From Eubacteriales bacterium (GTDB lineage Bacteria > Bacillota > Clostridia > Oscillospirales > CAG-272): a stretch of DNA of 64,000 nucleotides. Position numbers and translations under genes: made by a program. The stretch is taken from the NCBI GenBank assembly GCA_045651985.1, contig JAZRTK010000026.1, positions 36,634 to 100,633 on the forward strand, read 5' to 3'. The notes below the pieces were generated by a model. It saw nothing but the letters and a program-made list of their open reading frames with translations. It had not been told where the DNA came from and did no database searches. This document shows, one piece after another, positions 1,395 to 47,503 of the stretch (position 1 is its first letter; the number at the start of each line of letters is the position of its first letter).

Positions 1395-1414
1395 CAAAAC
1401 GAAGGTAACAAACC

Positions 1415-3906: not shown

Positions 3907-3927
3907 CAATACGCCCAGGAGAAAACA

Positions 3928-6036: not shown

Positions 6037-6070
6037 GATTTGTAAAAACAAATAGTGATGAGGCTTGTTA

Positions 6071-9000: not shown

Positions 9001-9157
9001 GAAATCACGGATCAGTGACGGTGTGAGAAGATGTATATCTCTACCGGAAGAATATATTCAAGCATTGCTTGATTTTTTGCTTTATGTCCAAGAAGAAAGA
9101 AACAAGAAAATCGATTATTACGAGATACAAAAAATCTTAGAGCAGGAAGTGCGATAA
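6071..9157 (+). CDS. HerA/FtsK-like (DUF87-type) P-loop ATPase with large N-terminal region
   Basis: Walker A is GSTGSGKSNT (nt 7604-7627) and Walker B-like is ITVLEEAHNL (about nt 8294-8311), with IIVDQSP and KIIMRLP downstream. ATG 6071 is preferred over TTG 6065 because GAGG lies about 9 nt upstream. Confidence 0.8.
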   Translation: MNTISSFDMNNKAQLVHNGIVTADKFINKSYLINLADNEVLPLSDEFNTTKTIRLYQIEKLVYDKEENICDKLISVYSSLLNIDSSVLLVISGEESAITLHIGIRSVNNTSVAGLILEKSFLGNFPGSSLKRLRNDEIEAVMKSGVVSDSVGVLKNISCVTVVPSMRDENKDKFVQGIEKFIDTMRGAKYTAVLIAQPVSKQGLEQRKRGLEEMYSALSPMAKTTLSYAENYSEAVTNGMSENFSHSINNSVNITNGSNSSDSYSRSKGANLGLWGSGVNTGTSRSYTSGQSWSKSVTQGSADTTSTGTNSSTSQTTGNTRTLSAEHQNKSVAELMTKLEEQLKRIKECEGFGLWDCACYFTSDDIQTAVVAANTYKALMLGDNTSVENSHVNIWDIRSKDENRKNVLDYVKCGIHPVMKIEPEQGYAPQIVTPGSYISGKELPFLVGIPRKSIPGVPVNSIAEFGRNVFVQNRASDRETVQLGSIYHMGKIEKNKVELDLNSFTSHCFVTGSTGSGKSNTVYCLLEKFHQNHIPFLVIEPAKGEYKSAFGALENINIISTNPYVGQMLKLNPFSFNSHIHILEHLDRLIEIFNACWEMYAAMPAILKDAIEKIYVDKGWDLLNSVYLGEGEPVFPNFGDLMKALPDIINDSGYSSDTKGDYIGALVTRVTSLTNGISGQIFCDNYEIHDSVLFDENTVVDLSRVGAMETKSLIMGLIVLKLTEHRMANSSRANSELKHITVLEEAHNLLKRSSGESAGRNLVGKSVEMICNSIAEMRTYGEGFIIVDQSPTAIDVAAIKNTNTKIIMRLPERNDCEAVGNAAGLNEDQKKEISKLETGVAVVMQNNWLEAVLARVDLFSNLYEACIPTVSYEAMKAFKSIVVRELMNQYIIEKQMNLERMLGAIDSVDIPFHKKAEMRRCMEGTLKRLSTKRDVDFFSETLYNLVGANSVFEIAESTILPSKETEYRYAPESVREWKSRISDGVRRCISLPEEYIQALLDFLLYVQEERNKKIDYYEIQKILEQEVR

Positions 9158-10737
9158 TGAACGAGCTAAAAATTGTCTTGAATCCTTATAACAGCGTCAA
9201 TACTGTCTCTCTGGACGGACGTTCACTTTCTGTTTACAGCGAGCTATGCAACTATATGAAAAGACCTTTTCTCGCTTGGGCAAACGATTTTTTCAAGGCG
9301 GCGGAAACTGAAATCAATGATTTTTTTGACTGTACCGTTGTAAGTGAGCGATTTGAGGCACTGTTTTTGACTGACCTATGTTTGAGGTCAGATGCCTGTA
9401 ATAAAATCAAAGCTGAAAATTTTGAGATAAACTTTCTTGTGGGCAAAAGATTTGATGTTGTAAAAAAATTGGCTGATAAGTATGGCGTTGCGTATTCGGT
9501 TGACGAATTTAAGCTTCCTGTTTCTTTGAATGGATTTGAAAATTTGCGCTCTGAAATGTTTAAACGGTCCTATGGCGAAGGAGATTTTTTAGAAATCGTC
9601 GATAAAACTCCGGCAACGCCAAATGCAAACATTACACTCGTTGTCTCAACTGACCGTCAAATACGTTGTTGTGAAAACGGAAAATACATATGGGAAGTGC
9701 CACGAGATGCGATAGTTGAAAGTGTTGAGGCTATAACCGATCGTTTTGTAAAGATTCCCTTTATCGTAAAAACGTCACAGAAGATACGTGCTTGTAAATT
9801 GCTTTCGTCAGATGACAGCGAGCTCCTTACGCTTGCAACGACAATAACACCGATACTTTCTGTGGATAATTTGAAAAAACTCGAAGTTGGCGAATCGACG
9901 GAGTTAAAGGTTAAGGTGTCTCCGACTAAAAACGCTTTGCCGTCTCTCAGAATAGAGGTTGACGACAATAGTATAGCGGTTGCAGATGGACTTACTATAA
10001 CAGCATTAAGTCCCGGCGAAACTGAAATATGCATCTTTCGAGCCGACGAGGCAATTCCTTTTGCGAAAAAACAGATTACAGTATTTCGGCAAAATCGAGT
10101 ACAAAAAATTGTGTTAGATAGACCTGAGCCTACAGTGGGAATTGGCAAAACACAGAAAATCGACATAAAGGTTTTTCCGGTCGATGCGGATGACAGTAAA
10201 TATGTTGTATGGTCTGTAAACAATCCGAATATCGCCACCGTAAATGAGTCTGGAGAAGTAACCGCGATAGCAAGCGGGAGGGTTGTTGTCACAGCATCGA
10301 CAATGAATCAAAAGGAAAGCGTTATTATCGATGTGATGCCCAATATATCAAAAATCACTTTTTCTGATACGAACGTCCAACTTCTCAAAGGTGAAAGCTA
10401 TTCTGTTGGTGTTGTATGCGAGCCTGCAAAGTGTTTTAATAACGAATATAATTGCAGGAGCAGTAATGATAACGTTGCTCTTGCAGAAAAACAAATTGAT
10501 GGCTCAATACTGATAACAGCCAAAGAACCGGGCATATGTACTGCAGTATGCTCGGCGGTTGAGGGCAACTGTATGGAGAGTTGCTCAATAGAGGTTTTGG
10601 ACCCTGTTGAAGTGGAACAAAAAATCAAGAAAAAACAAATGTCTGTTGATATTGCGTGTATTGTTGGAATTCCTCTTGCAGTCGTTGTAATTCTTACAAT
10701 TGTAACCATCATTCTTAATGCGCTTACTCACGGATAG
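9157..10737 (+). CDS. Big_2 (bacterial Ig-like) repeat protein with C-terminal membrane anchor
   Basis: Big_2-like signatures are ITALSPGETEICIF, VNESGEVTAIASGRVVVTAS and ILITAKEPGICTAVCS. The terminal hydrophobic helix is IVGIPLAVVVILTIVTIILNAL. TAATG overlaps the ATPase stop. Confidence 0.75.
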   Translation: MNELKIVLNPYNSVNTVSLDGRSLSVYSELCNYMKRPFLAWANDFFKAAETEINDFFDCTVVSERFEALFLTDLCLRSDACNKIKAENFEINFLVGKRFDVVKKLADKYGVAYSVDEFKLPVSLNGFENLRSEMFKRSYGEGDFLEIVDKTPATPNANITLVVSTDRQIRCCENGKYIWEVPRDAIVESVEAITDRFVKIPFIVKTSQKIRACKLLSSDDSELLTLATTITPILSVDNLKKLEVGESTELKVKVSPTKNALPSLRIEVDDNSIAVADGLTITALSPGETEICIFRADEAIPFAKKQITVFRQNRVQKIVLDRPEPTVGIGKTQKIDIKVFPVDADDSKYVVWSVNNPNIATVNESGEVTAIASGRVVVTASTMNQKESVIIDVMPNISKITFSDTNVQLLKGESYSVGVVCEPAKCFNNEYNCRSSNDNVALAEKQIDGSILITAKEPGICTAVCSAVEGNCMESCSIEVLDPVEVEQKIKKKQMSVDIACIVGIPLAVVVILTIVTIILNALTHG

Positions 10738-14307: not shown

Positions 14308-14336
14308 TTGACAAAAAGCGAATTGTTTGTTATAAT
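14308..14336 (+). promoter_or_regulatory. perfect consensus promoter with no ORF downstream
   Basis: TTGACA (14308-14313), 17-nt spacer, TATAAT (14331-14336). Confidence 0.7.
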
Positions 14337-14342
14337 AGAGCA

Positions 14343-14451
14343 TACACTTTATATAGGAATTTGCATTAGTTCCTATCCTTGGTTGATCGTAAACCTGAAA
14401 CGATCTTCCGTATAGCGGAACGAGAGCCCTGCATAGGGCTCTTTCCTTTTA
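14343..14451 (+). ncRNA. candidate small RNA (about 105 nt, four hairpins, unknown class)
   Basis: Hairpins are ATAGGAA/TTCCTAT (14353-14376), GATCGT/ACGATC (14385-14405), TTCCG/CGGAA (14406-14420), and the terminator-like AGAGCCCT-gcat-AGGGCTCT plus a T-rich tail (14423-14451). No plausible ORF. Confidence 0.45.
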
Positions 14452-14523
14452 TAAAAGTATTGCGGAGTTCAAATCCCGTGAGTACTTTTACGAAAATATC
14501 TTTTTTATAGCCAATAGACAAAA

Positions 14524-14558
14524 AAGAACAGACTCCCATTTGAGAGTCTGTTCTTTTT
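14524..14558. terminator. bidirectional intrinsic terminator
   Basis: AGAACAGACTC-ccatttga-GAGTCTGTTCT with an A-run before and a T-run after. Confidence 0.7.
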
Positions 14559-14750
14559 TCGTCGAGGACGGTTTTCATCCATGACCGACGGAGGAGGTCA
14601 TGGGCTTTGAGCCTGAGCGCCGCCGGTGGCGGAAAAAGCGAGGGTGAAAAGGGAGAAAATAAGGAGCGTTGGGCGTGCGACTTGCGCCGCGCTCAACGCG
14701 ACTATATTTTCGACAGGGCAATGAAAAATCCCATCCCCGCAACCAAAAAG

Positions 14751-14780
14751 AAAAGACACCCGAACGGGTGTCTTTTCTTT
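14751..14780. terminator. hairpin terminator, copy 1 of GACACCC..GGGTGTC
   Basis: AAAAGACACCC-gaac-GGGTGTCTTTT flanked by A- and T-runs. Confidence 0.65.
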
Positions 14781-14910
14781 TAGACCGAAGGTGGACTTTA
14801 TCCATGACCAACGGCGAAGGAACGGGGGGGTGAGCCCATTCGCTCGCAGTGCGGGAAGCAGCGACTCCACCGAGAGGGTCAAACCAAATCAAATTATGAA
14901 ATTACACAAA

Positions 14911-14936
14911 AAATGACACCCGAAGGGTGTCTTTTT
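14911..14936. terminator. hairpin terminator, copy 2 of GACACCC..GGGTGTC
   Basis: GACACCC-gaa-GGGTGTC (14915-14931) with an A-run before and TTTTT after. Confidence 0.65.
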
Positions 14937-15022
14937 CCTTTTTATTTGCCCACACTGTTGTTTTCTTTCGTTTATGGGGTAAAATATATATACATATATA
15001 TTACGAAAAGGAGATCGATACT

Positions 15023-15877
15023 ATGCCTAAATCATCTATCACAACAACCGATTTAACAAATTTTAAGAACCATTTATATAATGAAGAAAAAAGTGCTCTG
15101 ACCATCGAAAAATACCTGCGCGACGTGCGTGCTTTTACGGCATACCTGGACCACAGGCCACTGTCAAAGGAGATCACCGTCGAATGGAAACGGTCACTGG
15201 AAGAAAGGCGGTACAGACCCCGTTCAATAAACTCCATGATCGCAAGTCTGAACAGCTTTCTGATCTTTTTGGGGGCACACGACTGTAAGGTAAAAGCCAT
15301 AAGGATCCAAAAGGCAATATACATGCCCGAAGAAAAGGAGCTGACGAAAACAGAATACAAGCGTTTGCTTTCCTCGGCAAAAAAACAGGAGCGCCTGAGC
15401 CTTATCATGCGCGCCATTTGCGCTACGGGAATAAGGGTTTCCGAGCTGAAATATTTTACGGTGGAGGCGGTCAGAGAGCGGGAGGTCTCGGTCAAATGCA
15501 AAAGCAAGAACCGAACGATAATAATACCGCAAGAGCTGAGTCGCCTTTTGCTGAATTACGCCAAAAAGCAAGGTATCGACAGCGGCGCTATCTTTTTGAC
15601 GCGAGGCGGAAAGCCCCTTGACAGAAGCTATATCTGGGCGCAGATGAAAAAGTGCTGCATAACGGCGCACGTAAGCGCGTCAAAGGTATTCCCACACAAT
15701 TTGCGAAAGCTTTTCGCACGAACTTTTTACGCAATAGAGAAGGACATTGCCAAATTAGCCGACATTCTCGGACACAGCAGCATCGAAACGACGCGAATTT
15801 ATATAATGGCAACGGGTATTGAGCACAGACGTCAAATCGAGAAACTCGGTCTGGTTTTTGCTGATTTTTTTGCTTAG
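15023..15877 (+). CDS. tyrosine recombinase (XerC/D-phage integrase family)
   Basis: Has a core-binding N-domain, ATGIRVSEL (Arg), HNLRKLFA, LGHSSIETTRIY (His..Arg..Tyr). Start moved to ATG 15023 (AAAGGAG 9 nt upstream) rather than the ORF-track start at 14927. Confidence 0.85.
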   Translation: MPKSSITTTDLTNFKNHLYNEEKSALTIEKYLRDVRAFTAYLDHRPLSKEITVEWKRSLEERRYRPRSINSMIASLNSFLIFLGAHDCKVKAIRIQKAIYMPEEKELTKTEYKRLLSSAKKQERLSLIMRAICATGIRVSELKYFTVEAVREREVSVKCKSKNRTIIIPQELSRLLLNYAKKQGIDSGAIFLTRGGKPLDRSYIWAQMKKCCITAHVSASKVFPHNLRKLFARTFYAIEKDIAKLADILGHSSIETTRIYIMATGIEHRRQIEKLGLVFADFFA

Positions 15878-17213: not shown

Positions 17214-17732
17214 ATGAATCAAAAGAACAGGATCGAGCAGGGCTTTACACTCTGCTTGGTCTTAGCTATCATTCTCGCTATTTTGCTATATGTTTTGGCA
17301 TTTATGCTGTTTTACACCATAGAGCCTGTCAGCATAAACCTCAACGGCGGAAAACCCGTGATCGAAGATAACGAATATCTGTTTGAGCCGGGCATGACGG
17401 TCGAAAAGCCCTTTTACATAGGAAACGAGGGCTCCTGGGACGTTTATTATAAAATTTATTTGAACAACGTTTCGGGCGAATTTGCAGACCTGATCGAAAT
17501 TACGATCCTCAACGGAAAGACAGTCCTGTATGAGGGAACGGCTCAAAGCTTGACACGCGATCGAGTTTCGGTAGTCGACGACATTCTTCTCTCGGGCGAC
17601 CGACGACATCTTACCATTCGATTCCACCTGCCCGACACCGCGGAGATTTTGGAGGAAAACGGAAATCTGAAATTCGACTTTTGCGCCGATGCAGTCCAGA
17701 TCCAGAACAATTCCAACAAGAATTTTGAATAA
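17214..17732 (+). CDS. small TasA/camelysin-like secreted protein (SipW-type signal anchor)
   Basis: N-terminal hydrophobic segment, then LNGGKPVIEDNEYLFEPGMTVEKPFYIGNEG. It is a paralog of the 18760 gene and sits in the cluster with SipW. Confidence 0.65.
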   Translation: MNQKNRIEQGFTLCLVLAIILAILLYVLAFMLFYTIEPVSINLNGGKPVIEDNEYLFEPGMTVEKPFYIGNEGSWDVYYKIYLNNVSGEFADLIEITILNGKTVLYEGTAQSLTRDRVSVVDDILLSGDRRHLTIRFHLPDTAEILEENGNLKFDFCADAVQIQNNSNKNFE

Positions 17733-17792
17733 CCGGATCTTCGCTCTCCATTTACACGTATTTAAGACAAATCAAGCTTCGGAGGTCGATAC

Positions 17793-18770
17793 ATGAGTAA
17801 AAGACTTCAAAAAATAAAGATCGTTATATTTGTTTTTTCCATTCTCCTTGCGCTCAGCCTTGCATCTCTTGCGGGAATTCTCCTTTTCGGGCGCGCTGAG
17901 CTGTCCGTTGACTCCGATTCGGTTACCGACAATTACATAAAGCCCACAGTCAACGCAAACGGTACTATCACAACAAAAAGCCAATGCCTCGCGTCACCCG
18001 TTATGCTCAGTACACCTCTTTTAACCGCTGATCTTTCTCGTGGCGTCCCTTTAACGGCTTCTCAAAAGACCGTCATCGAGTCGGATAGTACGAAGGATAC
18101 CGTTATACGCATATACAAAAGACACGCTCAGGACAGCACCCCGTTCCGCTTGTTCAATATGTTTCCCGGCGACAGCCACACAAGATCTTATTTTGTTGAG
18201 GTGTCCCACAAAGGAACCGTTACGGTCCGTTTCCGCGCAAATATTCTTCAGGGCAGTGAAAAGCTGGCTGAGGTGCTGAAATGCAAGATCGTGATACGAG
18301 GCGAAAACAAGCCTCTGTTTGACGGTCTTATGCGTGATATGCCGAGTAGTCTCAAACATCGCGTTTCCGCTTTGTTTAACAAAACCACCGAGTTGGTCTA
18401 CGATGTCACGGTCTATCTTGATACGAGCGTAGGCAATGAGTATATGGACAAAGCATTGGCTGCAGATTTCTGCTGGTGGGTCTGTGACAGCGGCAGCGAC
18501 CCTTATCCCCCTTCAACAGACCCCCTTGACACCAATACCGCCGATCCCGATGATTCTACGTCTTCCGACGTGACCGCCGATCCGACAGACACTACCGACT
18601 CCGATCCCGATGACGGCGAGCTCGTCTCTCCCGAAACGGGCGTAAACGTGCATTTTTGTATCTGGTTTTGGATCGCAATGATATCAATTTTTATTAACTT
18701 CATCCTTCTCAGACCGGGACGGTGTGCAAAAAACGGCGAACAGGAGGATAAGACGACAAATGACAAATAA
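17793..18770 (+). CDS. TasA/camelysin-like protein with acidic S/T/D/P stalk and (S/P)PXTG-type cell-wall sorting signal
   Basis: FNMFPGDSHTRSYFVEVSHKG core. SPETG (nt 18627-18641) is followed by a hydrophobic helix and the basic tail RPGRCAK. Confidence 0.7.
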   Translation: MSKRLQKIKIVIFVFSILLALSLASLAGILLFGRAELSVDSDSVTDNYIKPTVNANGTITTKSQCLASPVMLSTPLLTADLSRGVPLTASQKTVIESDSTKDTVIRIYKRHAQDSTPFRLFNMFPGDSHTRSYFVEVSHKGTVTVRFRANILQGSEKLAEVLKCKIVIRGENKPLFDGLMRDMPSSLKHRVSALFNKTTELVYDVTVYLDTSVGNEYMDKALAADFCWWVCDSGSDPYPPSTDPLDTNTADPDDSTSSDVTADPTDTTDSDPDDGELVSPETGVNVHFCIWFWIAMISIFINFILLRPGRCAKNGEQEDKTTNDK

Positions 18771-19308
18771 GACAGTTACCGAACGCCAAGTGAGGATAAG
18801 TATCCTTATGGTTGTGCTTCTTGCCATCGCTCTGTGCGTGACCACCTACGCGTTGTTCTATGCCACCGTGTCCGTAACGGGAAACTTTTTCGGGACCGGC
18901 TACGTGAGCATCGACCTCAACGGAGGTAAGCCTATTATTGAAGCACACGAGTATTTGTTTGAGCCCGGCATGACCGTTGAAAAACCCTTTTACGTGCAAA
19001 GCGACAGTTCGTGGGCGGTGTACTTCAAGATCTATTTTGATAAGGTTGAAGGAGGTCTCGCCGACGTTCTGGAGATCACCGTTCTTGACGGAGACAAGGT
19101 CTTATACCGGGGAACGGCAGCCCGCTTGACACGGCAAACCGTGTCGGCTGCCGACGATGTTCTCCATCCGGGAGAACGAAAGGATCTCACCATTCGTTTC
19201 CATATGCCCAAAACCACGGGTAATTCGGCAAAAAACATGAGTCTTGCTTTTGATTTCTGTGCCGATGCCGTCCAGATGAAAAACAATCCAAACAGAGAAT
19301 TTGAATAA
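18760..19308 (+). CDS. small TasA/camelysin-like secreted protein, paralog of 17214
   Basis: Start moved to ATG 18760 (AGGAGGA upstream). TTYALFYATVS is signal-like, and LNGGKPIIEAHEYLFEPGMTVEKPFYVQSD matches the paralog. Confidence 0.7.
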   Translation: MTNKTVTERQVRISILMVVLLAIALCVTTYALFYATVSVTGNFFGTGYVSIDLNGGKPIIEAHEYLFEPGMTVEKPFYVQSDSSWAVYFKIYFDKVEGGLADVLEITVLDGDKVLYRGTAARLTRQTVSAADDVLHPGERKDLTIRFHMPKTTGNSAKNMSLAFDFCADAVQMKNNPNREFE

Positions 19309-19325
19309 CAGGAAGGAAATATGAA

Positions 19326-20015
19326 ATGAGGAAGGCATTGAAAATAACTTCTGCCGTTCTGGTATGGGTCCTCGTTGCCGTGACAGTGGGCATAATGATC
19401 TTCACCGTAATATCGGTAAACACCCTTGACCGCTCAAACAGAAGCATTTTCGGATACAAATTCTTTATCGTCCGCTCCGACTCCATGAGCGCCACCGATT
19501 TCAAGGCGGGAGACATCATATTCGTAAAGAATTGTGACCCCGCGACACTCAAGGTAGGCGATATTATCGCATTTACCTCGCAGAATTCCCACAATTTCGG
19601 CGAAACCGTCACCCATAAAATCAGAGAAAAAACCACCGATGCGGACGGAAATCCCGCATTCGTTACATACGGAACGACCACCGATGAAAATGACGAATCG
19701 GCGGTCACTTATCCGTACGTACTCGGAAAATATACGGGCAAGATACCGAACGTGGGCTCGTTTTTTCAGTTTATCAAGACGACGCCCGGTTACATTCTCT
19801 GTATTCTCGTTCCCTTTCTTCTGCTTATCCTTTATCAGGGCATCAACTGTATCAGGCTGTTCAGAAGATACAAAAAAGAACAGATGCAGGAGATCATATC
19901 CGAGCGTGAAAAAATCGAAGAGGAACGCAGACAGTCCGCAGAAATGATGAAAGAGCTGCAAGAGCTCAAAGCCCAGCTTGCCGAAAAGGAAGGCGCGGGC
20001 ACTCCTAAAGAATAA
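19326..20015 (+). CDS. sipW: signal peptidase I, SipW (ER/archaeal) type
   Basis: N-terminal TM, catalytic-Ser motif IVRSDSMSAT, His motif ETVTHKI, a second TM and a charged coiled C-terminal tail. Confidence 0.85.
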   Translation: MRKALKITSAVLVWVLVAVTVGIMIFTVISVNTLDRSNRSIFGYKFFIVRSDSMSATDFKAGDIIFVKNCDPATLKVGDIIAFTSQNSHNFGETVTHKIREKTTDADGNPAFVTYGTTTDENDESAVTYPYVLGKYTGKIPNVGSFFQFIKTTPGYILCILVPFLLLILYQGINCIRLFRRYKKEQMQEIISEREKIEEERRQSAEMMKELQELKAQLAEKEGAGTPKE

Positions 20016-20023
20016 AAATCTAA

Positions 20024-20043
20024 ATAAACGGTAAGTGCCGTTT
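20024..20043 (+). terminator. weak hairpin after sipW
   Basis: TAAACGG-taagtg-CCGTTTA followed by an AT-rich tail. The stem is short. Confidence 0.3.
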
Positions 20044-20086
20044 ATCATAATTTTAATAACATTCATAAATAGGAGGTATTAAGAAA

Positions 20087-21439
20087 ATGACGAATGTTAT
20101 AACAACAAAGAAAGCTCTGCTGAGCAGCGCAGTGGCGCTTCTTCTCTGCTTTGCAATGCTCATGGGAACCACGTTTGCGTGGTTTACCGACTCCGCTGCT
20201 TCCGGCAGCAACGTAATTACCGCAGGTAACCTTGACATCGTTGTTGAGTACACACTTGACGGCGAGACATGGAAGACACTTGACGGCGCAAACGATTTGT
20301 TCCAGAAGGGTCTCTGGGAGCCCGGCCATACCGAGGTTGTTGCTCTCCGTATCAAGAACAATGGTACTTTGGCTCTGAAATATGCGGCTAACATGAACAT
20401 TGTTAATGAAAACGTTGGTAAGACCAAGGACGGCGCGGATATCGTTCTCTCCGACATTCTTACTGTTAATTCGATCATTATGGATACAGGAGCAATGGGC
20501 GATGTTCTGCTTGGAGTGGCTTTCAGCGACGAAAGCACATTGCAGTACGAGAACACAGCTTCTTTTAAGAAGGCTAATGTTCTTGGTTCTGATGAAATGC
20601 TTCTCGCAGGCGCGTCAAAGTATCTCATCGTCAAGGTCGACATGGCTGAGACCGTAGGCAACGAAGCTAACCACAACGGTACAAACATTCCTTCCATCAA
20701 CTTTGGTATCAACGTTCTTGCAACTCAGTTTACATACGAGAATGACAGCTTTGGTAAGGATTACGATGAGGATGCGGAGTACCCTGTAGTCGATGCAGCC
20801 GGACTCAAGGAGGCGCTCGCTTCCGGCGTTGAAAATATCGCGCTTTCCGCCGATATCACCGTTAATAAGAATGAGACTGTTACCGTTGCATCCGGTGTGA
20901 ATGCTACTATCAACCTTAACGGTCATACTCTGTCTACTTCTGCTGACAAGAGCGGAAATCAGGAAATGTTCCTGGTCAAGGGCAACCTGACCGTTGAAAA
21001 CGGTAAACTTCAGATGACCGCTCAAAATAACCAGGAATGGAACGCCATGGCAGCAATTTTTGACGTTACCGCCGGCGGCGTCCTGACCATGAAAAATGTT
21101 GAAGCGAGTGTAAGCGGCACGGATATGAACTTTATCGTTCATTTGAACAACTGGGGCTCTGCAACTCTGACGGTCGAGAACTGTGACTTCACTGCTTCTT
21201 ACTGTGGTGTACGTGCCTTTAACAGCGGCTATGACATGAACACTGTTACCATCAAAAACACCGACTTCCACGGCGGAAGAATGTTCTGGGTACATAACTA
21301 CACATCTGAGGGGAAGGACGATTCCACTTTGACTCTGGACATCTACAACAACGGCAACACATCTGATAATGCAAAGCCCGTTCGTTTCGGCTTCAGCAAT
21401 TCTGTTTACTACGATCTTGACGGTAATGTGATCAGCTGA
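20087..21439 (+). CDS. SipW-dependent-signal TasA-like N-domain fused to beta-helix/adhesin-like C-domain
   Basis: MLMGTTFAWFTDS is the SipW-cognate signal hallmark. WEPGHTEVVALRIKNNGTLALKY is camelysin/TasA-like. The C-terminal part has repetitive beta-strand motifs (VTVASGVNATINLNGHTL...). Confidence 0.75.
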   Translation: MTNVITTKKALLSSAVALLLCFAMLMGTTFAWFTDSAASGSNVITAGNLDIVVEYTLDGETWKTLDGANDLFQKGLWEPGHTEVVALRIKNNGTLALKYAANMNIVNENVGKTKDGADIVLSDILTVNSIIMDTGAMGDVLLGVAFSDESTLQYENTASFKKANVLGSDEMLLAGASKYLIVKVDMAETVGNEANHNGTNIPSINFGINVLATQFTYENDSFGKDYDEDAEYPVVDAAGLKEALASGVENIALSADITVNKNETVTVASGVNATINLNGHTLSTSADKSGNQEMFLVKGNLTVENGKLQMTAQNNQEWNAMAAIFDVTAGGVLTMKNVEASVSGTDMNFIVHLNNWGSATLTVENCDFTASYCGVRAFNSGYDMNTVTIKNTDFHGGRMFWVHNYTSEGKDDSTLTLDIYNNGNTSDNAKPVRFGFSNSVYYDLDGNVIS

Positions 21440-21537
21440 TTGTTTCTCTTTTAAGATCAATACTCAGCAAGAAACACACATATCCCGTCAAGGATCATCC
21501 AAACGTATATGGGACACGGGCTACTGCGTAGCTGCGA

Positions 21538-21627
21538 GTGTTTTTCATATATTCTTCCCATCCAACTCTCCTTCGGGGGAGTTGGGCGGCAGTCAATGGG
21601 CATAAGTTCTAAATTTATGCCTTTTGA
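21538..21627. repeat. about 90-nt double-hairpin intergenic element, copy 1
   Basis: GTGTTTTTCATATATTCTTCCC...CAACTC.CC-ttcg-GGGGAGTTGGGCGGC.GTCAATGGGCATAA...TTATGCCTTTTGA. It is near-identical to the copy at 23648. Confidence 0.7.
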
Positions 21628-21745
21628 TTGCTGAAAAAGACAGCAAAAGATCAAACAGGCTCTTATGCGCGTTGGGTCAACGGTCAGCGCATAAGCGGCT
21701 TCAATACTTCCCAACGTTGGCAAATAAAAAAGGAGGTCATGATAA

Positions 21746-23602
21746 ATGACAAACGCAAAAACAACCAAAAAAGCGTTGCTCACATCTGCAGTTGCACTTC
21801 TGCTCTGCTTTGCAATGCTCATGGGAACCACGTTTGCGTGGTTTACCGACAGCTCAGCTTCCGGCAGCAACGTGATCACCGCAGGTAATCTTGACATCGT
21901 TGTTGAGTACACACTTGACGGCGAGACATGGAAGACCCTCGACGGCGCAAACGATCTGTTCTCAAAGGGTCTCTGGGAGCCCGGCCATACCGAGGTCGTT
22001 GCTCTCCGCATAAAGAACAACGGTACTCTGGCTCTGAAATATGCGGCTAACATGAACATTGTTAATGAGACCAAGGGTAAGACCAAGGACGGCGCGGATA
22101 TCGTTCTCTCCGACATCTTGACTGTCACTACTGTTACCCATCAGGTTAACCAGGTTGGAGACATTCTGCTCGACATGGTGTTTGGTGGTAGCCAAAACAC
22201 AGATACCGGTGCTGCTAAAGCATTTAAATCCGGCAATATCCTCGCATCTGACCAAGAACTTCTCGCAGGAGATGCTCACTATGTAATCATCACGGTCGAC
22301 ATGGCAGAGACTGTTGGCAACGAAGCTAACCACAACGGTACAAACATTCCTTCCATTAACTTCGGCATCAACGTTCTTGCAACTCAGTTTACATACGAGA
22401 ATGACAGCTTTGGCAACAAGTACGATAAGGATTCCGAATACCCTGCAACAAACACAGCCGACGTTTGGGATGGCTCCATTGATATTTCTTGGTACACGGA
22501 TAACCCCGATGCAACAGAATTTTCACTTAATACCGCAAGCGCGGTTGCTGGACTTGCCGCTCTGGTAGACGGCTCGGCAGTTGTTCCTGCAGACGTTTCA
22601 TCGGAAATAACCCTTCCTGTAACCTTTGATGGAAAGACTGTAATATTGAAAAATGACGTAGACCTTGCCGGCATCTTATTCAACCCGATCGGTTCTTACA
22701 GAAAAGAGGTTGCATTCACCGGTACATTCGACGGCAACGGCAAAACCATAAAGAATCTGAGCCAGAACACATGGGAGCTGAACACAGGCTATTATTACGA
22801 TGATCTTGGTTTGGGACTGTTTGGCTTGGTTGAAGATGCCCACATCAAGAATCTTAATATTGACAGCGCATCAATTTCCGGAGAATCCGGTATGGTCGGT
22901 ATCGTTGCCGCAGCGGCTTACGGCGACTGTGTTTTTGAAAACATAAAGGTAACAAATTCCCAGGCTGCAGATTACCAGTATTATGCAGGCGGTATCGTCG
23001 GTTGGGCAAGCGGCGAACAGACGTATAAGGGCATTGTCGTGGATGAGTCTACTGTTATTGGCGGACAGTGGGGCGATTTCGGTAACGCCAACGGAGGTAT
23101 TATCGGCGGCGCAGGCACAAGCGGCACCTATCATTTTGAGGATTGTACCGTTGCCTGCCGTATAGATGCCGTCAACGACATTGTCTCTGCTTATCAGTGG
23201 TATTGCTACCGCAATTGTGGCATGCTTATCGGTAAAGTTGATAGCTATGTTACGGATGAAGTCGTAAACGTTGTTGCAGAAAACGTAACCTGCAAGAATG
23301 TTACCGTTATTTACAACGATTGGGCAAATTACACCTACTGCGAGTTTGCAGGCACCAGCTATCCTTACGTTCGTGTTCAGGCTGGAACCAGTGTAGATGC
23401 TTACAGCAACATTCGTTACGGTCATCCGACCGATGCTAACGGCAATACGGTAGTGGATGATAATCACGTACATAATGACGGTGAAGATCACCATCTTCTT
23501 ATTGCGTTTGACCAGCTCTTCGGCGGTCCCGCAAATCATCGTTATTGCTACTACGGTGTTGCGGAGCATGAAGGCGTAACGGTTGTTTATAACAACAAGT
23601 AA
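21746..23602 (+). CDS. SipW-dependent-signal TasA-like N-domain fused to GLUG-like/beta-helix C-domain
   Basis: The N-terminal ~235 aa are near-identical to the 20087 product except for a variable central stretch. The C-terminal part has GLFGLVEDAHIKNLNI and GGIVGWASG type repeats. Confidence 0.75.
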   Translation: MTNAKTTKKALLTSAVALLLCFAMLMGTTFAWFTDSSASGSNVITAGNLDIVVEYTLDGETWKTLDGANDLFSKGLWEPGHTEVVALRIKNNGTLALKYAANMNIVNETKGKTKDGADIVLSDILTVTTVTHQVNQVGDILLDMVFGGSQNTDTGAAKAFKSGNILASDQELLAGDAHYVIITVDMAETVGNEANHNGTNIPSINFGINVLATQFTYENDSFGNKYDKDSEYPATNTADVWDGSIDISWYTDNPDATEFSLNTASAVAGLAALVDGSAVVPADVSSEITLPVTFDGKTVILKNDVDLAGILFNPIGSYRKEVAFTGTFDGNGKTIKNLSQNTWELNTGYYYDDLGLGLFGLVEDAHIKNLNIDSASISGESGMVGIVAAAAYGDCVFENIKVTNSQAADYQYYAGGIVGWASGEQTYKGIVVDESTVIGGQWGDFGNANGGIIGGAGTSGTYHFEDCTVACRIDAVNDIVSAYQWYCYRNCGMLIGKVDSYVTDEVVNVVAENVTCKNVTVIYNDWANYTYCEFAGTSYPYVRVQAGTSVDAYSNIRYGHPTDANGNTVVDDNHVHNDGEDHHLLIAFDQLFGGPANHRYCYYGVAEHEGVTVVYNNK

Positions 23603-23647
23603 ACCAGAAAAAATCGATATGAAACACCGGTCTCTCTGTGACCGCTC

Positions 23648-23738
23648 GTGTTTTTCATATATTCTTCCCCTCAACTCCCCCTCGGGGGAGTTGGGCGGCG
23701 GTCAATGGGCATAAAAACAAGACTTTTATGCCTTTTGA
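23648..23738. repeat. about 90-nt double-hairpin intergenic element, copy 2
   Basis: Same element as 21538-21627, sitting the same distance class downstream of the paralogous gene. Confidence 0.7.
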
Positions 23739-23776
23739 CCGACGCCGTAAACGTTTTTTAGAAAGGAAGACGGAGA

Positions 23777-25231
23777 TTGAAAAAAATCACCCTCACAAAG
23801 CAACAAAATAATAAGAAAATTTCGGCTTGCTCCTCGCTGTCAGATGGCATTTTCTATACGAAAATGACCCTCTCGCTTTTGACTATATTCGCTTGTCTGG
23901 TAATGATAGTCTCCTCCGCATTCGCGTTCTTCTTCACGTCGGTAGAAACGGACGGTGCAACCCTTTATGGTGCATATTATTCGCTTGAAATATCCGGAGC
24001 GACCGACAACAGCTACACAGCTCCTCTTGCCTTTGAGGACAAACATGTCTTCAAAATAAAGGCAACGGGCAATGCGACGACAGGCTACTGCAAGATCCGG
24101 ATCGGAGAAGACACCTATTACACCGAGCAGATAAACCGCGACGAGACCCTTTCCCTCACCGTTGTGGCGGCAAAAGGAACCGTCATTAAGTTTGAGCCTC
24201 ATTGGGGCTCAAACACAGCCAATAGAACCATCTCCGACACCATCAAACATTCCGTTACCCCGTCCGCACCCTACACCGTTGAGGTAACGGCAAAGCTCGA
24301 GGATATAGCTCTTTACTACGGCGTATCCGAGAACGATATTCTCACGTACAATGCCCTGACACAGATAAAAGTAGGCGACGCTCTGAAAATTCCCGGCGTT
24401 GACCCTGACACAAAGCCTTACGCGGTGCCCTACGCGGAATATAAGGTAGAGCCTACGGCAGATATTATGGACATCGCATTTTACTACGGAATAAAAGAAG
24501 AATACATTCTGACCTATAACAATATCAGTAATATCACCGTCGGCTCTGTTTTAAAGATCCCCGGAGTTGACAGGGAAACCACCCCCTATGCCGTCTCGTG
24601 CGTTTCCTTGAAGATCACCGATGGGGCAACTCTTAAAGGAATTGCCGAGCATTACGGTATTTTGGAATCGGATATTCTTACGTACAACAACATCTCGGCT
24701 CTGACCATCGAGACGACTATAAGAATTCCAGGCGCAACCGCAGCAACGACTCCTTACGTCGCTCCCGATCCCGATCCGATAAATAACGCTTACTATCAGA
24801 TCACAACCAAAAACAAGCTGACAGACAAGGATACCAAAGAGCTTCTTATATACCGAGGCAGATATTTCGACCCAAAGAAGGACATGAAGGTATTTGAGCT
24901 TGTGGACGACAAGGAAGGACAGAATTACGTAACCCTAAGAAACAAGGTGAAAGACCTCTCCTTCTGCTTTGCCTTGAAGGATAGCGTTGAGTCGGGCTAT
25001 TTGAAGATAATTATCGGCGAGAGCAACTATTACTCCGTTCCAATTAAAAAGGATTCCTACGTGAGACTTGATATATCCGCCGTGATAGGCACCGATATCC
25101 GCATCGAATTCTGTCGCGGCGAAATTGACCCGAAGCTTGACATCACGACCTTCTACGGTGATGATCTCAAGAACGAGATCAACGAGAAGAACAGAAAACT
25201 CGATCATACGATTCTGTCAAAAACGGAATAA
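23777..25231 (+). CDS. secreted protein with three LysM domains flanked by two related domains
   Basis: TTG start. SSAFAFFFTS is a signal-like segment. There are three LysM repeats (..DIALYYGVSENDILTYN..KIPG and two more, about nt 24272-24730). Confidence 0.75.
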   Translation: MKKITLTKQQNNKKISACSSLSDGIFYTKMTLSLLTIFACLVMIVSSAFAFFFTSVETDGATLYGAYYSLEISGATDNSYTAPLAFEDKHVFKIKATGNATTGYCKIRIGEDTYYTEQINRDETLSLTVVAAKGTVIKFEPHWGSNTANRTISDTIKHSVTPSAPYTVEVTAKLEDIALYYGVSENDILTYNALTQIKVGDALKIPGVDPDTKPYAVPYAEYKVEPTADIMDIAFYYGIKEEYILTYNNISNITVGSVLKIPGVDRETTPYAVSCVSLKITDGATLKGIAEHYGILESDILTYNNISALTIETTIRIPGATAATTPYVAPDPDPINNAYYQITTKNKLTDKDTKELLIYRGRYFDPKKDMKVFELVDDKEGQNYVTLRNKVKDLSFCFALKDSVESGYLKIIIGESNYYSVPIKKDSYVRLDISAVIGTDIRIEFCRGEIDPKLDITTFYGDDLKNEINEKNRKLDHTILSKTE

Positions 25232-25243
25232 TAATATTAAATC

Positions 25244-25275
25244 AAAAGAGACGCTTATAAAGCGTCTCTTTTTTA
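25244..25275 (+). terminator. intrinsic terminator ending the SipW/TasA-like cluster
   Basis: AAAAGAGACGCTT-ata-AAGCGTCTC followed by TTTTTT. Confidence 0.85.
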
Positions 25276-25287
25276 CGTCGATAACTG

Positions 25288-25315
25288 TTGATTTTTGCGA
25301 GTTTTGTGATATAAT
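25288..25315 (+). promoter_or_regulatory. promoter with extended -10
   Basis: TTGATT (25288-25293), 16-nt spacer, TGaTATAAT (-10 at 25310-25315). Confidence 0.55.
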
Positions 25316-25348
25316 TGTAATATAAACCTTACGGGAGGCGCACGGGAC

Positions 25349-26947
25349 GTGAAAAAAACATTCAATTACATCTTGCTCATAAACTGGGCTTGGCTGATCT
25401 CATCGCTTATAAATGCCGTGTCTCCTTTCTTGCCCGCATCTATACAAACCTCTTTTTTGACCCCGTATGATATGGGGCCGCTTTGGATGCTTTTGTTTCT
25501 TTCTGTCATGCTCGTTTTTATTGCGGAGCACAAAATGTATAAAAAAACGTGGCTGCAGGGAGTTTTCAGAACGATCGCCCTCGTTTCGCTTTTACCGGGT
25601 GTATTTTTTGCATGCACGTTCCTTTACCGCGGCTTTTCTTCATTTAAGTATATATCGGGCTGCGTTATGCTCTGTCTTTTCGCCGCCTTGCTTGTCTTGT
25701 TCCACAAAGCCTATAACAAATTACTTCTCAAAAAGGTCACAGCGGTATGGGAGGCAACGTCACTTATCACCGCTATGATCGGCGTATCCCTTTGGGTCCC
25801 GAATATGTGGGGCATCCGCCTGCCTCAGATAACTCTGAACGGCGATCTTCTTGACTATTACATAGGTCTGCTTTCCTTGACGTTTATCACTATTTCGGTC
25901 ATGAGCATGCTTTCTGACAAAAGCGTTATCATATACTGGGAAAACGTCGCCGAGGCGAAGCTTATAAAGCCGCTGTTTGGCAGCTTTGTGGCGTACACTG
26001 CCTATTCGATCTCCGCCACCGTTGGCGCGGGAATCAGCGTTTTGCTCGGCAATTCTCTTGCTTTTGCGGTATTTCTCGTGATCAACGTACTGATTTTGAT
26101 ATTCCTTACGCTTACCATGGTAGACGTTTACTACGGCAGAGAGCAAAAACGGCGGGGACTCGCCCAAAAATTGCGTATTGCCACGGGAATGCGAAAAATG
26201 CCCGAGTTCTTCTTTTCCGACGATCTGGCATTTTACAAAAGCATGGACTATCGTGACATGATGCAAAATCTTCACCATTATCTTTACCACGAGATCGAAG
26301 AGCGCAATATCCCGTATATCCGCGAGGTGGCGGAGCTTTACGGAGGGTATATGAATTGTTTTGACACAAAAGAGGGTGAGGAGGTCAAAAAACTTTTGTT
26401 CTCGGCACCTATTGAGTTAAATCAAATGGTAGTGGACGGAATCGGCGCGCGGGTGTCTGAAATGGCGCAAAAGCACGATTCACTCAACGCTTATGCAAAC
26501 CAAACGTGGAGGGAGGACGATCCGCTGTGGGCAAAGCTGGCCGAGAATGAAACTCTGGAATATCTTACGGCTGACCCTTCGCTTACCGACAAATTCGCGG
26601 AAACCGTCCTTGACAGAGTGACGCTTTTGTTCAACGATCTCCTTCTCTCAAAGGGGCAGTCCTACGAATGGAGGTTTCACATAACAAAAACCTTCCGCCG
26701 CTACCACTGTCGGGTAAATCACAGGCTTTTTGAAAGGCTTATTCCCGTATACGACCCCGACAACGATTTGATACCGAGCCTTGCTCATATAATTCTCTAT
26801 TTAATGAAAAACGGAAGCGACGGTACTCGCCGTTTAATTGAAAAGCACCCCGCGGTCAGAGCCTTTGGCATACACTTAAAGCGCCTTGGTTTTACCGACC
26901 CCGAGATCTCATTGTGGTACAAATATTTCGGCATCGACCATCAATAA
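25349..26947 (+). CDS. polytopic membrane protein with soluble C-terminal domain, unknown function
   Basis: GTG start with GGGAGG 9 nt upstream. It has at least six hydrophobic helices in the first ~260 aa and no recognisable motif. Confidence 0.6.
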   Translation: MKKTFNYILLINWAWLISSLINAVSPFLPASIQTSFLTPYDMGPLWMLLFLSVMLVFIAEHKMYKKTWLQGVFRTIALVSLLPGVFFACTFLYRGFSSFKYISGCVMLCLFAALLVLFHKAYNKLLLKKVTAVWEATSLITAMIGVSLWVPNMWGIRLPQITLNGDLLDYYIGLLSLTFITISVMSMLSDKSVIIYWENVAEAKLIKPLFGSFVAYTAYSISATVGAGISVLLGNSLAFAVFLVINVLILIFLTLTMVDVYYGREQKRRGLAQKLRIATGMRKMPEFFFSDDLAFYKSMDYRDMMQNLHHYLYHEIEERNIPYIREVAELYGGYMNCFDTKEGEEVKKLLFSAPIELNQMVVDGIGARVSEMAQKHDSLNAYANQTWREDDPLWAKLAENETLEYLTADPSLTDKFAETVLDRVTLLFNDLLLSKGQSYEWRFHITKTFRRYHCRVNHRLFERLIPVYDPDNDLIPSLAHIILYLMKNGSDGTRRLIEKHPAVRAFGIHLKRLGFTDPEISLWYKYFGIDHQ

Positions 26948-26978
26948 AATTACCCGAAATTTACAGCCTACAAAAAAA

Positions 26979-27005
26979 CAGGCGACACCAGCAGGTGTCG
27001 GCTGT
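26979..27005 (-). terminator. intrinsic terminator for the minus-strand small peptide gene
   Basis: CGACACC-agca-GGTGTCG with extended pairing. On the minus strand it is followed by TTTTTTT (26972-26978). Confidence 0.75.
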
Positions 27006-27009
27006 CTCT

Positions 27010-27126
27010 TTATGGTCTGAAAATCGGGCCCCATCCGTCGTTGTTCTCGGGAGTAGATACAGCCAAGATATTCTGACTTGGCTCTCCCAATATCTCAAGA
27101 GCGGGCGCAGTATATTTTTCTTTCAT
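27010..27126 (-). CDS. 38-aa peptide MKEKYTAPALEILGEPSQNILAVSTPENNDGWGPIFRP (below ORF-track cutoff)
   Basis: AAAGGAAAGGAG SD upstream of the ATG (27126-27124). It has its own consensus promoter and its own terminator. Confidence 0.5.
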   Translation of the reverse strand: MKEKYTAPALEILGEPSQNILAVSTPENNDGWGPIFRP

Positions 27127-27155
27127 TTCCACACTCCTTTCCTTTTTATACAAAA

Positions 27156-27184
27156 ATTATACACCTTTTCGGCAGATATGTCAA
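27156..27184 (-). promoter_or_regulatory. perfect consensus promoter for the 38-aa peptide gene
   Basis: On the minus strand: TTGACA (27184-27179), 17-nt spacer, TATAAT (27161-27156). Confidence 0.65.
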
Positions 27185-27310
27185 TAGGAAAATTTCATCA
27201 AAAAATATTCCTATCCAAAAATCCAAATAAATCGCAATGGGACGCACCGTTTCTCGGTCGTGCCACATGCATAAATAATGCAAAATCGTGCTTAAATTAA
27301 GACTGTAAAA

Positions 27311-38170: not shown

Positions 38171-38307
38171 ATATATATAATATTATAACATATATAATTA
38201 TATATTGCAAGGGCTTTTTCGATTTTTTCCACATTATACAGTCTATTTTTGTGGAAAAGTTATATTATATAAAAATCAGCGGTTGACAGTTTAGATTTTG
38301 TGGTTTA
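38171..38307. promoter_or_regulatory. oriC part 2: AT-rich unwinding candidate plus DnaA boxes upstream of dnaA
   Basis: A pure A/T run at 38171-38210. Boxes are TTTTCCACA (38225-38233), TGTGGAAAA (38250-38258) and the weaker TGTGGTTTA (38299-38307). Confidence 0.65.
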
Positions 38308-38311
38308 TAAT
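38283..38311 (+). promoter_or_regulatory. consensus promoter for the rightward copZ-like/rarA unit
   Basis: TTGACA (38283-38288), 17-nt spacer, TATAAT (38306-38311). Confidence 0.6.
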
Positions 38312-38349: not shown

Positions 38350-38574
38350 ATGCTTGGATTGGGAAAAAAGAAAAAGATCGAAATATATATCGAGGGAATG
38401 TCCTGTAAACACTGCTCGGAAAGAGTTGAGAGACTGCTCAATTCCATACCCGGCGTCAAGGCTAAAGTTGACCTTGAAAGTGCAAAGGCTGTAATCGAAG
38501 CGCCTGCAAAGGTAAGCGCGGAAAAACTTAAAAAGGTCATTTTGGAATCGGGATTCAAGGCGGTAGATAAATGA
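38350..38574 (+). CDS. heavy-metal-associated (HMA) domain protein, CopZ-like
   Basis: GMSCKHC metal-binding motif in a 74-aa ferredoxin-like protein. Confidence 0.8.
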   Translation: MLGLGKKKKIEIYIEGMSCKHCSERVERLLNSIPGVKAKVDLESAKAVIEAPAKVSAEKLKKVILESGFKAVDK

Positions 38575-47432: not shown

Positions 47433-47503
47433 AAAGACATAAATTGCGGGCGCAGGAAAAGACATATTCGGCACCCGCAATTTTAGAAAATACAGAGGAA
47501 AAA

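Follow-up and report, generated by a model that had tools for sequence, protein, structure and literature searches.

The closest described relatives of the system considered here are the Linear Polyphosphorylated Peptides (LPPs), which Bacilli encode in their lppAKBSDN clusters (Popov et al., Nat Commun 2026; PMC13381572). These clusters encode an SpI-like leader-cleaving peptidase (LppS), a discrete recognition element (RRE; LppB), the HprK-like kinase LppK, the NTP-transferase LppN, and the MsbA-like exporter LppD, and they contain no cyclase. LPP precursors, which are 35 to 200 amino acids (aa) long, combine a conserved N terminus, YxxPxVLxHQxIxFETxxS, with variable C termini. LppK polyphosphorylates Ser3 of the LppA core (AQSNWK...) and does not accept the variants S3T and S3Y, while LppS, to which LppB presents the substrate, cuts after T(-1); both biochemistry and a crystal structure exist for LppA-LppB (PMC13381572). 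Here, we analyze a 64,000-nucleotide (nt) stretch of a Eubacteriales bacterium (GCA_045651985.1, contig JAZRTK010000026.1, positions 36,634 to 100,633; hereafter, the window) and, in particular, a gene of 38 codons next to gyrA, for which an original prediction had proposed a lasso-type leader peptide. According to our analysis, this gene is, with a probability of roughly 0.58, an orphan and diverged LPP-type precursor gene whose maturation genes lie elsewhere in the genome.

A [Y/W]xxP motif for RRE binding is common to LPP and lasso leaders, its YxxP type occurs in several RRE-dependent classes, and LPP and lasso clusters are often found together in one genome (PMC13381572). Supplementary Data 1 of that report, from which our comparison proteins were taken, has columns for precursors and RREs located "elsewhere in the genome" and classes the RREs of clusters 4 and 9 as "others" with precursors "ND". 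No precursor was assigned to the Clostridial SpI/RRE clusters, and the main text mentions neither Ruminococcus nor Clostridia (PMC13381572). A further comparison is offered by the phosphorylated lasso peptides, paeninodin and Bsf, which resemble the window peptide and its family in YxxPxL at positions -17 to -12, in Ile or Val at -2, and in a Ser at (predicted) core position 3, to which, in the lasso peptides, an HprK-like kinase helped by the B1 RRE attaches one or more phosphates (PMC10368454), as well as in NTP-transferase and ABC exporter accessory genes; paeninodin-type leaders differ in using WxxP. In the Bsf lasso family of Bradymonadales, where Ile(-2) was experimentally validated and Ser3 is phosphorylatable, the leader obeys a rule that sets its motif residues at Y(-17)/P(-14)/L(-12), counted from the cleavage site (PMC10368454).

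The peptide gene and its relatives

The original prediction described a complete minus-strand mini-gene, and every element of it was recovered at the coordinates collected in Table 1. Its promoter, read directly from the sequence, is the sole 12/12 match to the consensus in the 14 kb scanned. The 64 kb contain three copies of the exact 29-nt promoter pattern, whereas shuffled sequences predict 0.02 and none of 100 shuffles reaches three; promoters of perfect consensus are thus a genuine trait of this organism. The proposed hairpin with its T tract was equally borne out, with a fold of -23.7 kcal/mol (z = -5.5) equalled by none of 200 shuffles; because an A-tract lies on the other side of the hairpin, the terminator is potentially bidirectional and would also serve the convergent gene ending at 26947. 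No Rfam family overlaps the peptide locus. An in-frame upstream TTG, from which a product of 47 aa would result, is separated from the preceding -10 hexamer by 3 nt, lacks a Shine-Dalgarno (SD) sequence, and is probably located 5' of the transcription start, which we infer to be near position 27149; the ATG is therefore regarded as the true start.

A single true homologue, P0001 (42 aa, MKKNYTAPALEILTGPGEKILAVSSGEGTPENNDGWGPIFRP), was retrieved from protein sets of 5.8 and 1.84 billion sequences, an exhaustive phmmer search of the 1.84 billion representatives returning P0001 plus three unrelated repeat proteins. In a close relative (locus L001), P0001 is encoded at the equivalent site, again downstream of gyrA; the GyrA of this relative is 97% identical in protein and its gyrA DNA 89.5% identical, 136 of the 154 differences falling at third codon positions. 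In the DNA alignment, L001 keeps both promoter hexamers, the 17-nt spacing, the SD sequence (GAAAGGAG), and the ATG, while the spacer and the upstream sequence have diverged. The P0001 gene carries a 12-nt in-frame insertion (four extra residues) just after the conserved AVS; the two peptides otherwise differ by 8 replacements, at residues 3 to 4 and 14 to 19, whereas the last 14 codons show 0 non-synonymous changes and 1 synonymous change. The confinement of replacements to residues 3 to 4 and the linker, the in-frame nature of the indel, and the conservation of the tail codons together mark the gene as translated, its head and tail being under constraint and its linker free to vary. Both genomes keep the peptide promoter, and the intergenic region between gyrA and the peptide gene is about 95 nt longer in the window (27185-27310, compared with 1471-1496 in L001). 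The extra segment holds an imperfect hairpin, read by eye only, which might be the gyrA terminator.

More distant relatives were found by a DNA-level scan of reference genomes. It identified 20 loci, the majority of them from Ruminococcus of the rumen, in which short open reading frames (ORFs) with an SD sequence ahead of them encode the consensus MKEKYTAPEMEIIEFxxEDVITTS followed by a variable tail; a metagenome scan led by the diverged P0001 confirmed a single locus, a duplicate of L029. A profile search extended this family to at least 511 clusters of 30- to 49-aa peptides, and among the matches listed, 120 of 120 are 30 to 49 aa long, have no Pfam domain, and are unnamed or annotated as "hypothetical protein". 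The genes of the family have an AAAGGAG-like SD sequence 6 to 9 nt upstream of the start. Their conserved head is under purifying selection (pN/pS = 0.21, pS = 0.67), while their tails are hypervariable. The window peptide itself matched nothing in Pfam and only a sub-threshold lasso_cyano model in NCBIfam, and a literature search for its motif as a literal string gave no match. We built a hidden Markov model (HMM) of the family without the window peptide or P0001 and scanned it over 2,232 six-frame segments of the window, where the peptide ORF scored 24.5 bits (E = 1.6e-6) and no second family peptide was found. The match keeps the register of the start Met, Y5, P8, the hydrophobic residues 10, 12, 13, 20, and 21, and S24 with the following P-E, and the ORF also has the length of the family, its M-K-x-K-Y-T-A-P head, and an SD sequence of its own. 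These results give moderate statistical support to the assignment of the window peptide to the Ruminococcus-type MKEKYTAP family.

The 124 available members, including the window peptide and P0001, were aligned by the Y(-17)/P(-14)/L(-12) rule. In the window peptide, the rule places the cut at L21|A22, with Ile20 at -2, Ser at core position 3, and Asp at core position 9, the same boundary that had been proposed originally for a core beginning with Ala and preceded by Ile at -2. Position -12 is occupied by Met, Val, Leu, or Ile in 123 members and by Ala in one, position -2 by Val (105) or Ile (19), and position -1 by Ile (122) or Leu (2), whereas the core begins with Thr in 118 members, with Ser in 3, and with Ala in 3, and has a length of 9 to 24 residues (mode, 10); one member, P0122, shares the AVS core start of the window peptide. 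Core position 3 is Ser in 124 of 124 members, always at a fixed distance from the Tyr, and it equals S3 only if the cut is at 21|22. That this Ser is invariant while the two preceding Thr vary fits a kinase accepting only Ser, as reported for LppK. By the invariance of this residue and by analogy with LppA and BsfA, Ser24 is the predicted site of (poly)phosphorylation, and the Val or Ile at -2 likewise parallels the phosphorylated lasso precursors.

The maturation cassette and the proposed LPP-type pathway

The expectation that relatives of the peptide might neighbour maturation genes held for RRE-dependent genes but not for lasso genes. In three independent arrangements (loci L003/4/8/12, L036/37, and L042/43), a cassette lies within 6 kb of a family peptide. 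It encodes an HprK-like/ScmC kinase (PF27840) with the Walker A motif SGTGKST, a PqqD-type discrete RRE (PF05402), an S26/SpI-type serine peptidase-like protein of about 140 aa with the motifs GDSMxP, HR[IV]xKV, and GDN, an ABC exporter (ABC_membrane+ABC_tran), and a nucleotidyltransferase (PF14907, NTP_transf_5). The PqqD-type protein, the kinase, and the exporter are constant across the cassettes, while the nucleotidyltransferase and S26 genes are sometimes missing. The chance of three such links among about 16 independent 20-kb neighbourhoods is, as a rough estimate that assumes one cassette per approximately 3.5-Mb genome, of the order of 1e-4. Neither an Asn-synthetase-like cyclase, nor a transglutaminase-like protease, nor an adjacent radical S-adenosylmethionine (rSAM) enzyme was found in about 16 distinct contexts of relatives, and literature searches on PF14907 and SynChlorMet returned nothing helpful. 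Since the relatives adjoin a PqqD-type RRE in three independent arrangements, the N-terminal YxxPxL segment is best read as a putative RRE-binding leader. The Gly that completed the YxxPxL(x3)G motif of the original prediction did not stand, being Thr in P0001.

The proteins of the Ruminococcus cassette are related to those of the LPP clusters. The S26-like peptidase is 25 to 32% identical to the SpIs of the LppS cluster (E down to 8e-9) and 35 to 38% identical to an "uncultured Ruminococcus" SpI of cluster 9 of the sequence similarity network (SSN; E down to 4e-31). The RRE shows 43% identity to the SSN-cluster-9 RRE (E = 7e-21) and 32% to an LPP RRE (E = 2e-8), compared with no detectable identity to a paeninodin-type lasso RRE (E = 9.4). 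Judged from this homology, and since Popov et al. classed the RREs of the closest cluster as "others" and its precursors as "ND", the cassette is probably LPP-type and would belong to a sister clade for which no precursor was yet assigned.

The precursors compare in a similar way. Like the LPPs, the window peptide is a short precursor (38 aa) with a conserved Tyr-type YxxP leader (YTAP, residues 5 to 8), a variable C terminus, and a conserved Ser near the junction of leader and core (AVS... in the window core, AQS... in LppA). Its relatives adjoin the same five genes, once (L042/L043) in the identical order A-K-B-S-D-N, with no macrolactam cyclase, and in both systems precursors may sit away from the cluster. 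The differences concern the leaders, which are YTAPEMEIIEFxxEDVI|TTS in the family and ALEILGEPSQNIL|AVS in the window compared with YxxPxVLxHQxIxFET|xxS in LPPs; the length of the core, which is most often 10 aa in the family and is 17 in the window compared with 45 in LppA; and the hosts, which are Clostridia (Oscillospiraceae) rather than Bacilli. Moreover, the precursors of the family are typically scattered and coupled to genes of secreted leucine-rich repeat (LRR) proteins, whereas LPPs are coupled to capsule loci, and the window peptide has no cassette nearby. An HMM of 11 published LPP leaders aligned only the KKxYxAP segment of the window peptide and of the Ruminococcus family (2 to 8 bits), and it scored the lasso leader TfuA alike.

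For the docking of the leader strand on the RRE, the fusilassin/fuscanodin pair TfuA-TfuB1 (6JX3) provides a structural model. The family profile has the TfuA leader as its best match in the PDB (6JX3_A, E = 0.22), the segments KKKYTAPQL of TfuA and KEKYTAPAL of the window peptide being near-identical locally, and 6JX3 is also the best PDB match of the Ruminococcus RRE (E = 0.97), although both matches are short and statistically weak. TfuA differs in that it is a lasso precursor from an actinobacterium and has Thr(-2) and a ring-forming core, Trp1...Glu9. The LppB-LppA structure 9X8Z was not among the matches of the PDB search.

Orphan precursors are normal in this family, since, of the three or more peptide loci in R. 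flavefaciens ND2009, only one adjoins the cassette, and since the LPP report tabulates precursors away from their clusters; SAb67 and RGIG6044 have two peptide loci each. We propose that the window gene encodes the precursor of an LPP-type RiPP, a peptide made on ribosomes and modified after translation, and that its consensus promoter and good SD sequence would drive abundant monocistronic expression of the 38-aa peptide. The Tyr5-x-x-Pro8-x-Leu10 motif of its leader of about 21 residues would be bound as a beta-strand by a PqqD-type, LppB-like RRE encoded elsewhere. An HprK-like, LppK-like kinase would add one or more phosphates to Ser24, and an LppS-like serine peptidase of the SpI/S26 type, with the RRE presenting the substrate, would cut off the leader close to L21|A22. 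The phosphate may then be decorated further by a PF14907 nucleotidyltransferase, and the linear core AVS(P)TPENNDGWGPIFRP would leave the cell through an MsbA-like ABC exporter. For a linear core, the four-residue insertion of P0001 is harmless. All these biochemical steps, the cleavage site, and the existence of the cassette in this genome are predictions.

Several points weigh against this proposal. No RRE, HprK-like kinase, PF14907 nucleotidyltransferase, or lasso C or B2 gene was detected in the 64-kb window by Pfam/NCBIfam and profile HMMs, in agreement with the original prediction, which had noted no cyclase, protease, or RRE there; the caveat is an rSAM/SPASM protein, considered below. 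In pairwise comparison, the Ruminococcus SpI and RRE are closest to SSN cluster 9 and the "other" RREs, outside LPP cluster 1, and phosphorylation, cleavage, and export in this clade are assumed by analogy. Beyond KKxYxAP, the window peptide does not match the LPP consensus VLxHQxIxFET, the FET being absent, and its Tyr-to-Ser distance is 19 compared with 18 in LPPs. The middle of its leader (GEPSQN, residues 14 to 19) lacks the EF..ED block of the family, window-type sequences number two only, which limits inference, and the retrieval of the family by the first 8 residues of the query introduces an ascertainment bias. Finally, the predicted cleavage site is uncertain by about 2 residues, as the Y(-16) spacing of LPPs would place the cut after residue 20, the S3 analogy after 21, and the similarity to F(-3)-E(-2)-T(-1) after 22 or 23.

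The genes next to the relatives offer a view on function. A family peptide is usually encoded 0 to 26 nt downstream of a gene for a protein with a signal peptide, sometimes with an ATGA overlap, and this upstream partner is often a BspA/DUF285 LRR protein. An initial view of the LRRs as the functional link was revised, since the common element of the partners, present also in the non-LRR ones, is a C-terminal module of about 150 aa without a Pfam match (...NYCKAAENYFN...YYEIPNIAAHQL...LSYVYRVL...AKATYVYA.AA.AY). A lipoprotein ending in ...IELP[FVI][VI]P often comes after the peptide. The linkage to the proteins with the module is separate from the linkage to the maturation cassette. The triad of secreted protein, family peptide, and lipoprotein recurs in L002 to L043 (e.g., L008:7686-10621, L036:5796-8651, and L042:2390-6426), and the motif ELPFVP is also found in some peptide tails (P0013 and P0063). 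Peptides with Gly-rich tails (...DFGGxGDIxIP) are paired with a different partner C terminus, which suggests that peptide tail and partner C terminus co-vary.

The gene neighbourhoods suggest a cell-surface or matrix-related role. As a tentative extension, which we hold to be possible rather than probable, more than 500 Ruminococcus relatives would, together with the window peptide, form the hitherto unassigned precursor family of a Clostridial sister clade of the LPPs, in which one cassette per genome would mature many scattered phospho-peptides of about 10 to 17 aa, most of them coupled to secreted BspA-type LRR proteins with the novel C-terminal module and to IELPxxP lipoproteins; the window copy would be a stand-alone, constitutive variant. 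As a family, these hundreds of putative short precursors for a Clostridial LPP-like clade, coupled to secreted LRR proteins, appear to be undescribed in the searchable literature. The coupling to LRR adhesin-like proteins and lipoproteins gives a first functional hypothesis in rumen and gut Oscillospiraceae and, if true, points to a dedicated peptide-mediated surface, adhesion, or matrix system in rumen fibre degraders. LPPs have been known since 2026 only, and the 45 residues of their model core make it difficult to track by mass spectrometry. If the reading given here is right, nature would offer a large library of 10- to 17-residue cores with an invariant acceptor Ser, on which polyphosphorylation, the additions made by the nucleotidyltransferase, and the specificity of the SpI peptidase could be worked out much more easily.

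Lasso, other maturation, and small-protein explanations

The lasso assignment of the original prediction was not upheld, and we consider it very improbable that the gene encodes a genuine lasso precursor, in which a B1 RRE would bind the leader and a B2 cysteine protease would release it behind residue 21, whereupon a distantly encoded C cyclase would close a 9-membered ring between Ala22 and Asp30, and Trp or Phe of the GWGPIFRP tail would act as the plug. The window core alone is feasible, the spacing of Y5/P8/L10 giving a core with Ala1, Asp9, and an 8-residue tail with bulky residues, and the predicted acidic residue at core position 9 stands in this sequence. The Bsf family offers precedents for both Ile(-2) and a phosphorylatable Ser3, non-paeninodin lasso leaders of Bacillota use YxxP (PMC13381572), LPP and lasso clusters often share a genome, and, besides the TfuA leader, there is the weak match of residues 1 to 14 to lasso_cyano (NF033528, E = 0.18). 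Against this, a C or B2 gene, both of which lasso maturation needs, is absent from the window and from every relative's locus examined. In the core of P0001, AVSSGEGTPENNDGWGPIFRP, positions 7 to 9 are free of acidic residues, which occur instead at 6, 10, and 13, and its four-residue insertion would fall inside the 9-membered ring, which is incompatible with a conserved lasso. In the only alternative register, with a ring from S/G1 to D7, the Y(-17) spacing is lost, and in a different way in the window peptide than in P0001. In register, 122 of the 124 members are infeasible, only the window peptide and P0122 being feasible, and the family cores are mostly Thr-initial and too short. Furthermore, the usual Thr(-2) is absent, and the protease associated with the family is an S26/SpI-type serine peptidase, whereas phosphorylated lasso peptides need a B2 cysteine protease. 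The lasso resemblance is explained by the leader motif that LPPs share with lasso peptides (PMC13381572). For genome mining, this locus advises caution, as a lasso-type leader motif, the right spacing, and a feasible ring in one sequence are insufficient for a lasso call.

An RRE-dependent or other maturation pathway with a modification other than phosphorylation, for instance by the rSAM/SPASM protein of the window, appears improbable. This short protein is encoded 21 kb off and is coupled to an ORF without assignment, and the conserved tail TPENNDGWGPIFRP of the peptide contains Trp, Phe, Arg, and Pro. These are residues often targeted by rSAM enzymes. Moreover, leaders of the YxxP type are common to several RRE-dependent classes. 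Yet an RRE domain is missing from the rSAM protein, which stays below every curated family cutoff and whose gene neither adjoins the peptide gene nor shares its orientation, no rSAM enzyme adjoins any family member, and the invariant Ser together with the kinase-containing cassette points specifically to phosphorylation. We also find it unlikely that the gene encodes an unprocessed small cytoplasmic protein, a regulator or machine partner possibly related to gyrA, whose likeness to the family would reflect a short binding motif or chance. Such a protein would suit a gene that stands alone between a promoter and a terminator of its own, keeps its place after gyrA in the only close relative, and has no maturation gene within 64 kb; it would also suit a family similarity centred on the first 13 residues plus S24-P-E, the family having been retrieved with the first 8 residues of the query. 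However, the conserved head, variable linker, and conserved tail in exact register with a family linked to an RRE cassette are unlikely to arise by chance; the peptide, being Pro/Gly-rich and devoid of a hydrophobic core, Cys, or a metal site, is unlike a folded mini-protein; and the gyrA synteny comes from two nearly identical genomes and carries little weight. The peptide was also considered as a ComX-like, Phr/RRNPP-like, AgrD-like, or Pup-like product, a graspetide, or a type I toxin, and these readings were dropped since the features that define them, namely a signal peptide, Cys, neighbours of the ATP-grasp or ComQ type, and hydrophobicity, are absent.

Feature coordinates and other contents of the window

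Table 1. Positions of the peptide gene elements and of other features within the window
Feature	Position	Strand	Remarks
Sigma-70 promoter	27156-27184	-	-35 TTGACA 27184-27179; 17-nt spacer; -10 TATAAT 27161-27156; read directly
Shine-Dalgarno AAGGAG	27134-27139	-	7 nt 5' of the ATG at 27126; read directly
Precursor peptide ORF	27010-27126	-	MKEKYTAPALEILGEPSQNILAVSTPENNDGWGPIFRP; 38 codons 27126-27013; TAA 27012-27010; from ORF list
Predicted leader, residues 1-21	27064-27126	-	MKEKYTAPALEILGEPSQNIL; Y5-x-x-P8-x-L10 motif; Ile20 = -2; boundary +/- ~2 residues
Predicted core, residues 22-38	27013-27063	-	AVSTPENNDGWGPIFRP; Ser24 = core position 3, predicted (poly)phosphorylation site
Intrinsic terminator	26971-27012	-	GC-rich hairpin; core stem 27000-26983, extendable 27012-26971; T7 26978-26972
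Operon-like block	531-10737	+	PP2C phosphatase to Big_2 protein
Second perfect promoter	14308-14336	+	TTGACA-N17-TATAAT
Hairpin	~14517-14562		in stretch 14308-14927
Hairpin	~14741-14795		in stretch 14308-14927
Integrase gene	14927-15877
Cell-surface/matrix cluster	17214-26947		convergent with peptide gene
SipW (S26 peptidase)	19326-20015
TasA/camelysin-like gene	20087-21439		SipW-type signal peptide
TasA/camelysin-like gene	21746-23602		SipW-type signal peptide
LysM-repeat protein	23777-25231
532-aa protein	25349-26947		convergent with peptide gene; no family match
Third perfect promoter	38283-38311	+	ahead of CopZ-like gene
CopZ-like heavy-metal-associated protein	38350-38574		74 aa; GMSCKHC motif
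MORN-repeat protein	46605-47432		just upstream of rSAM-coupled ORF
Unannotated ORF	47444-48136		likelier ATG at 47505
rSAM/SPASM protein	48137-48988		283 aa; ~21 kb from peptide gene
RNase P class A RNA	63791-64000		145.9 bits; cut by window end

The neighbours named originally, gyrA upstream and a convergent protein of 532 aa downstream, are correct, the membrane-protein character of the latter being judged by a look at the sequence only. This protein closes a cell-surface/matrix cluster, which includes SipW, two TasA/camelysin-like proteins, a LysM-repeat protein, and three ORFs of no named family. SipW was considered as a candidate LppS and rejected: it matched the LppS-type profile with E = 0.009 only, has hydrophobic stretches at both ends, passes the cutoff of archaeal-type signal peptidases, and is encoded beside the TasA/camelysin-like genes; it is a housekeeping-type enzyme. 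The surface theme of the window may parallel the contexts of the Ruminococcus peptides, perhaps by coincidence.

The rSAM/SPASM protein reached no curated NCBIfam cutoff, its best matches (W-cofactor maturase, ScmE, and MoaA-like) all lying far below threshold. Its gene is translationally coupled to the unannotated ORF upstream, and the protein could be a peptide or cofactor maturase.

Two further perfect-consensus promoters were found in the window. The one at 14308 is followed by about 590 nt without a convincing ORF before the integrase gene; the sole features of this stretch are two hairpins, and no Rfam or tRNA/tmRNA match was obtained in it. It could correspond to a noncoding RNA of a new type or to the regulatory end of a mobile element. 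The other promoter precedes the CopZ-like gene, which is located in the dnaA-upstream region directly before an MgsA/RarA-type AAA+ gene.

The operon-like block at the beginning of the window encodes a PP2C phosphatase, two proteins without assignment, a 702-aa protein with weak Ser/Thr-kinase-like matches (sub-threshold, to the kinase domains of LanL and MAD6), a HerA/FtsK-like ATPase of 1030 aa (DUF87), and a Big_2 protein, and could represent a secretion or defence system. At the opposite end, the window breaks off within a bacterial RNase P class A RNA.

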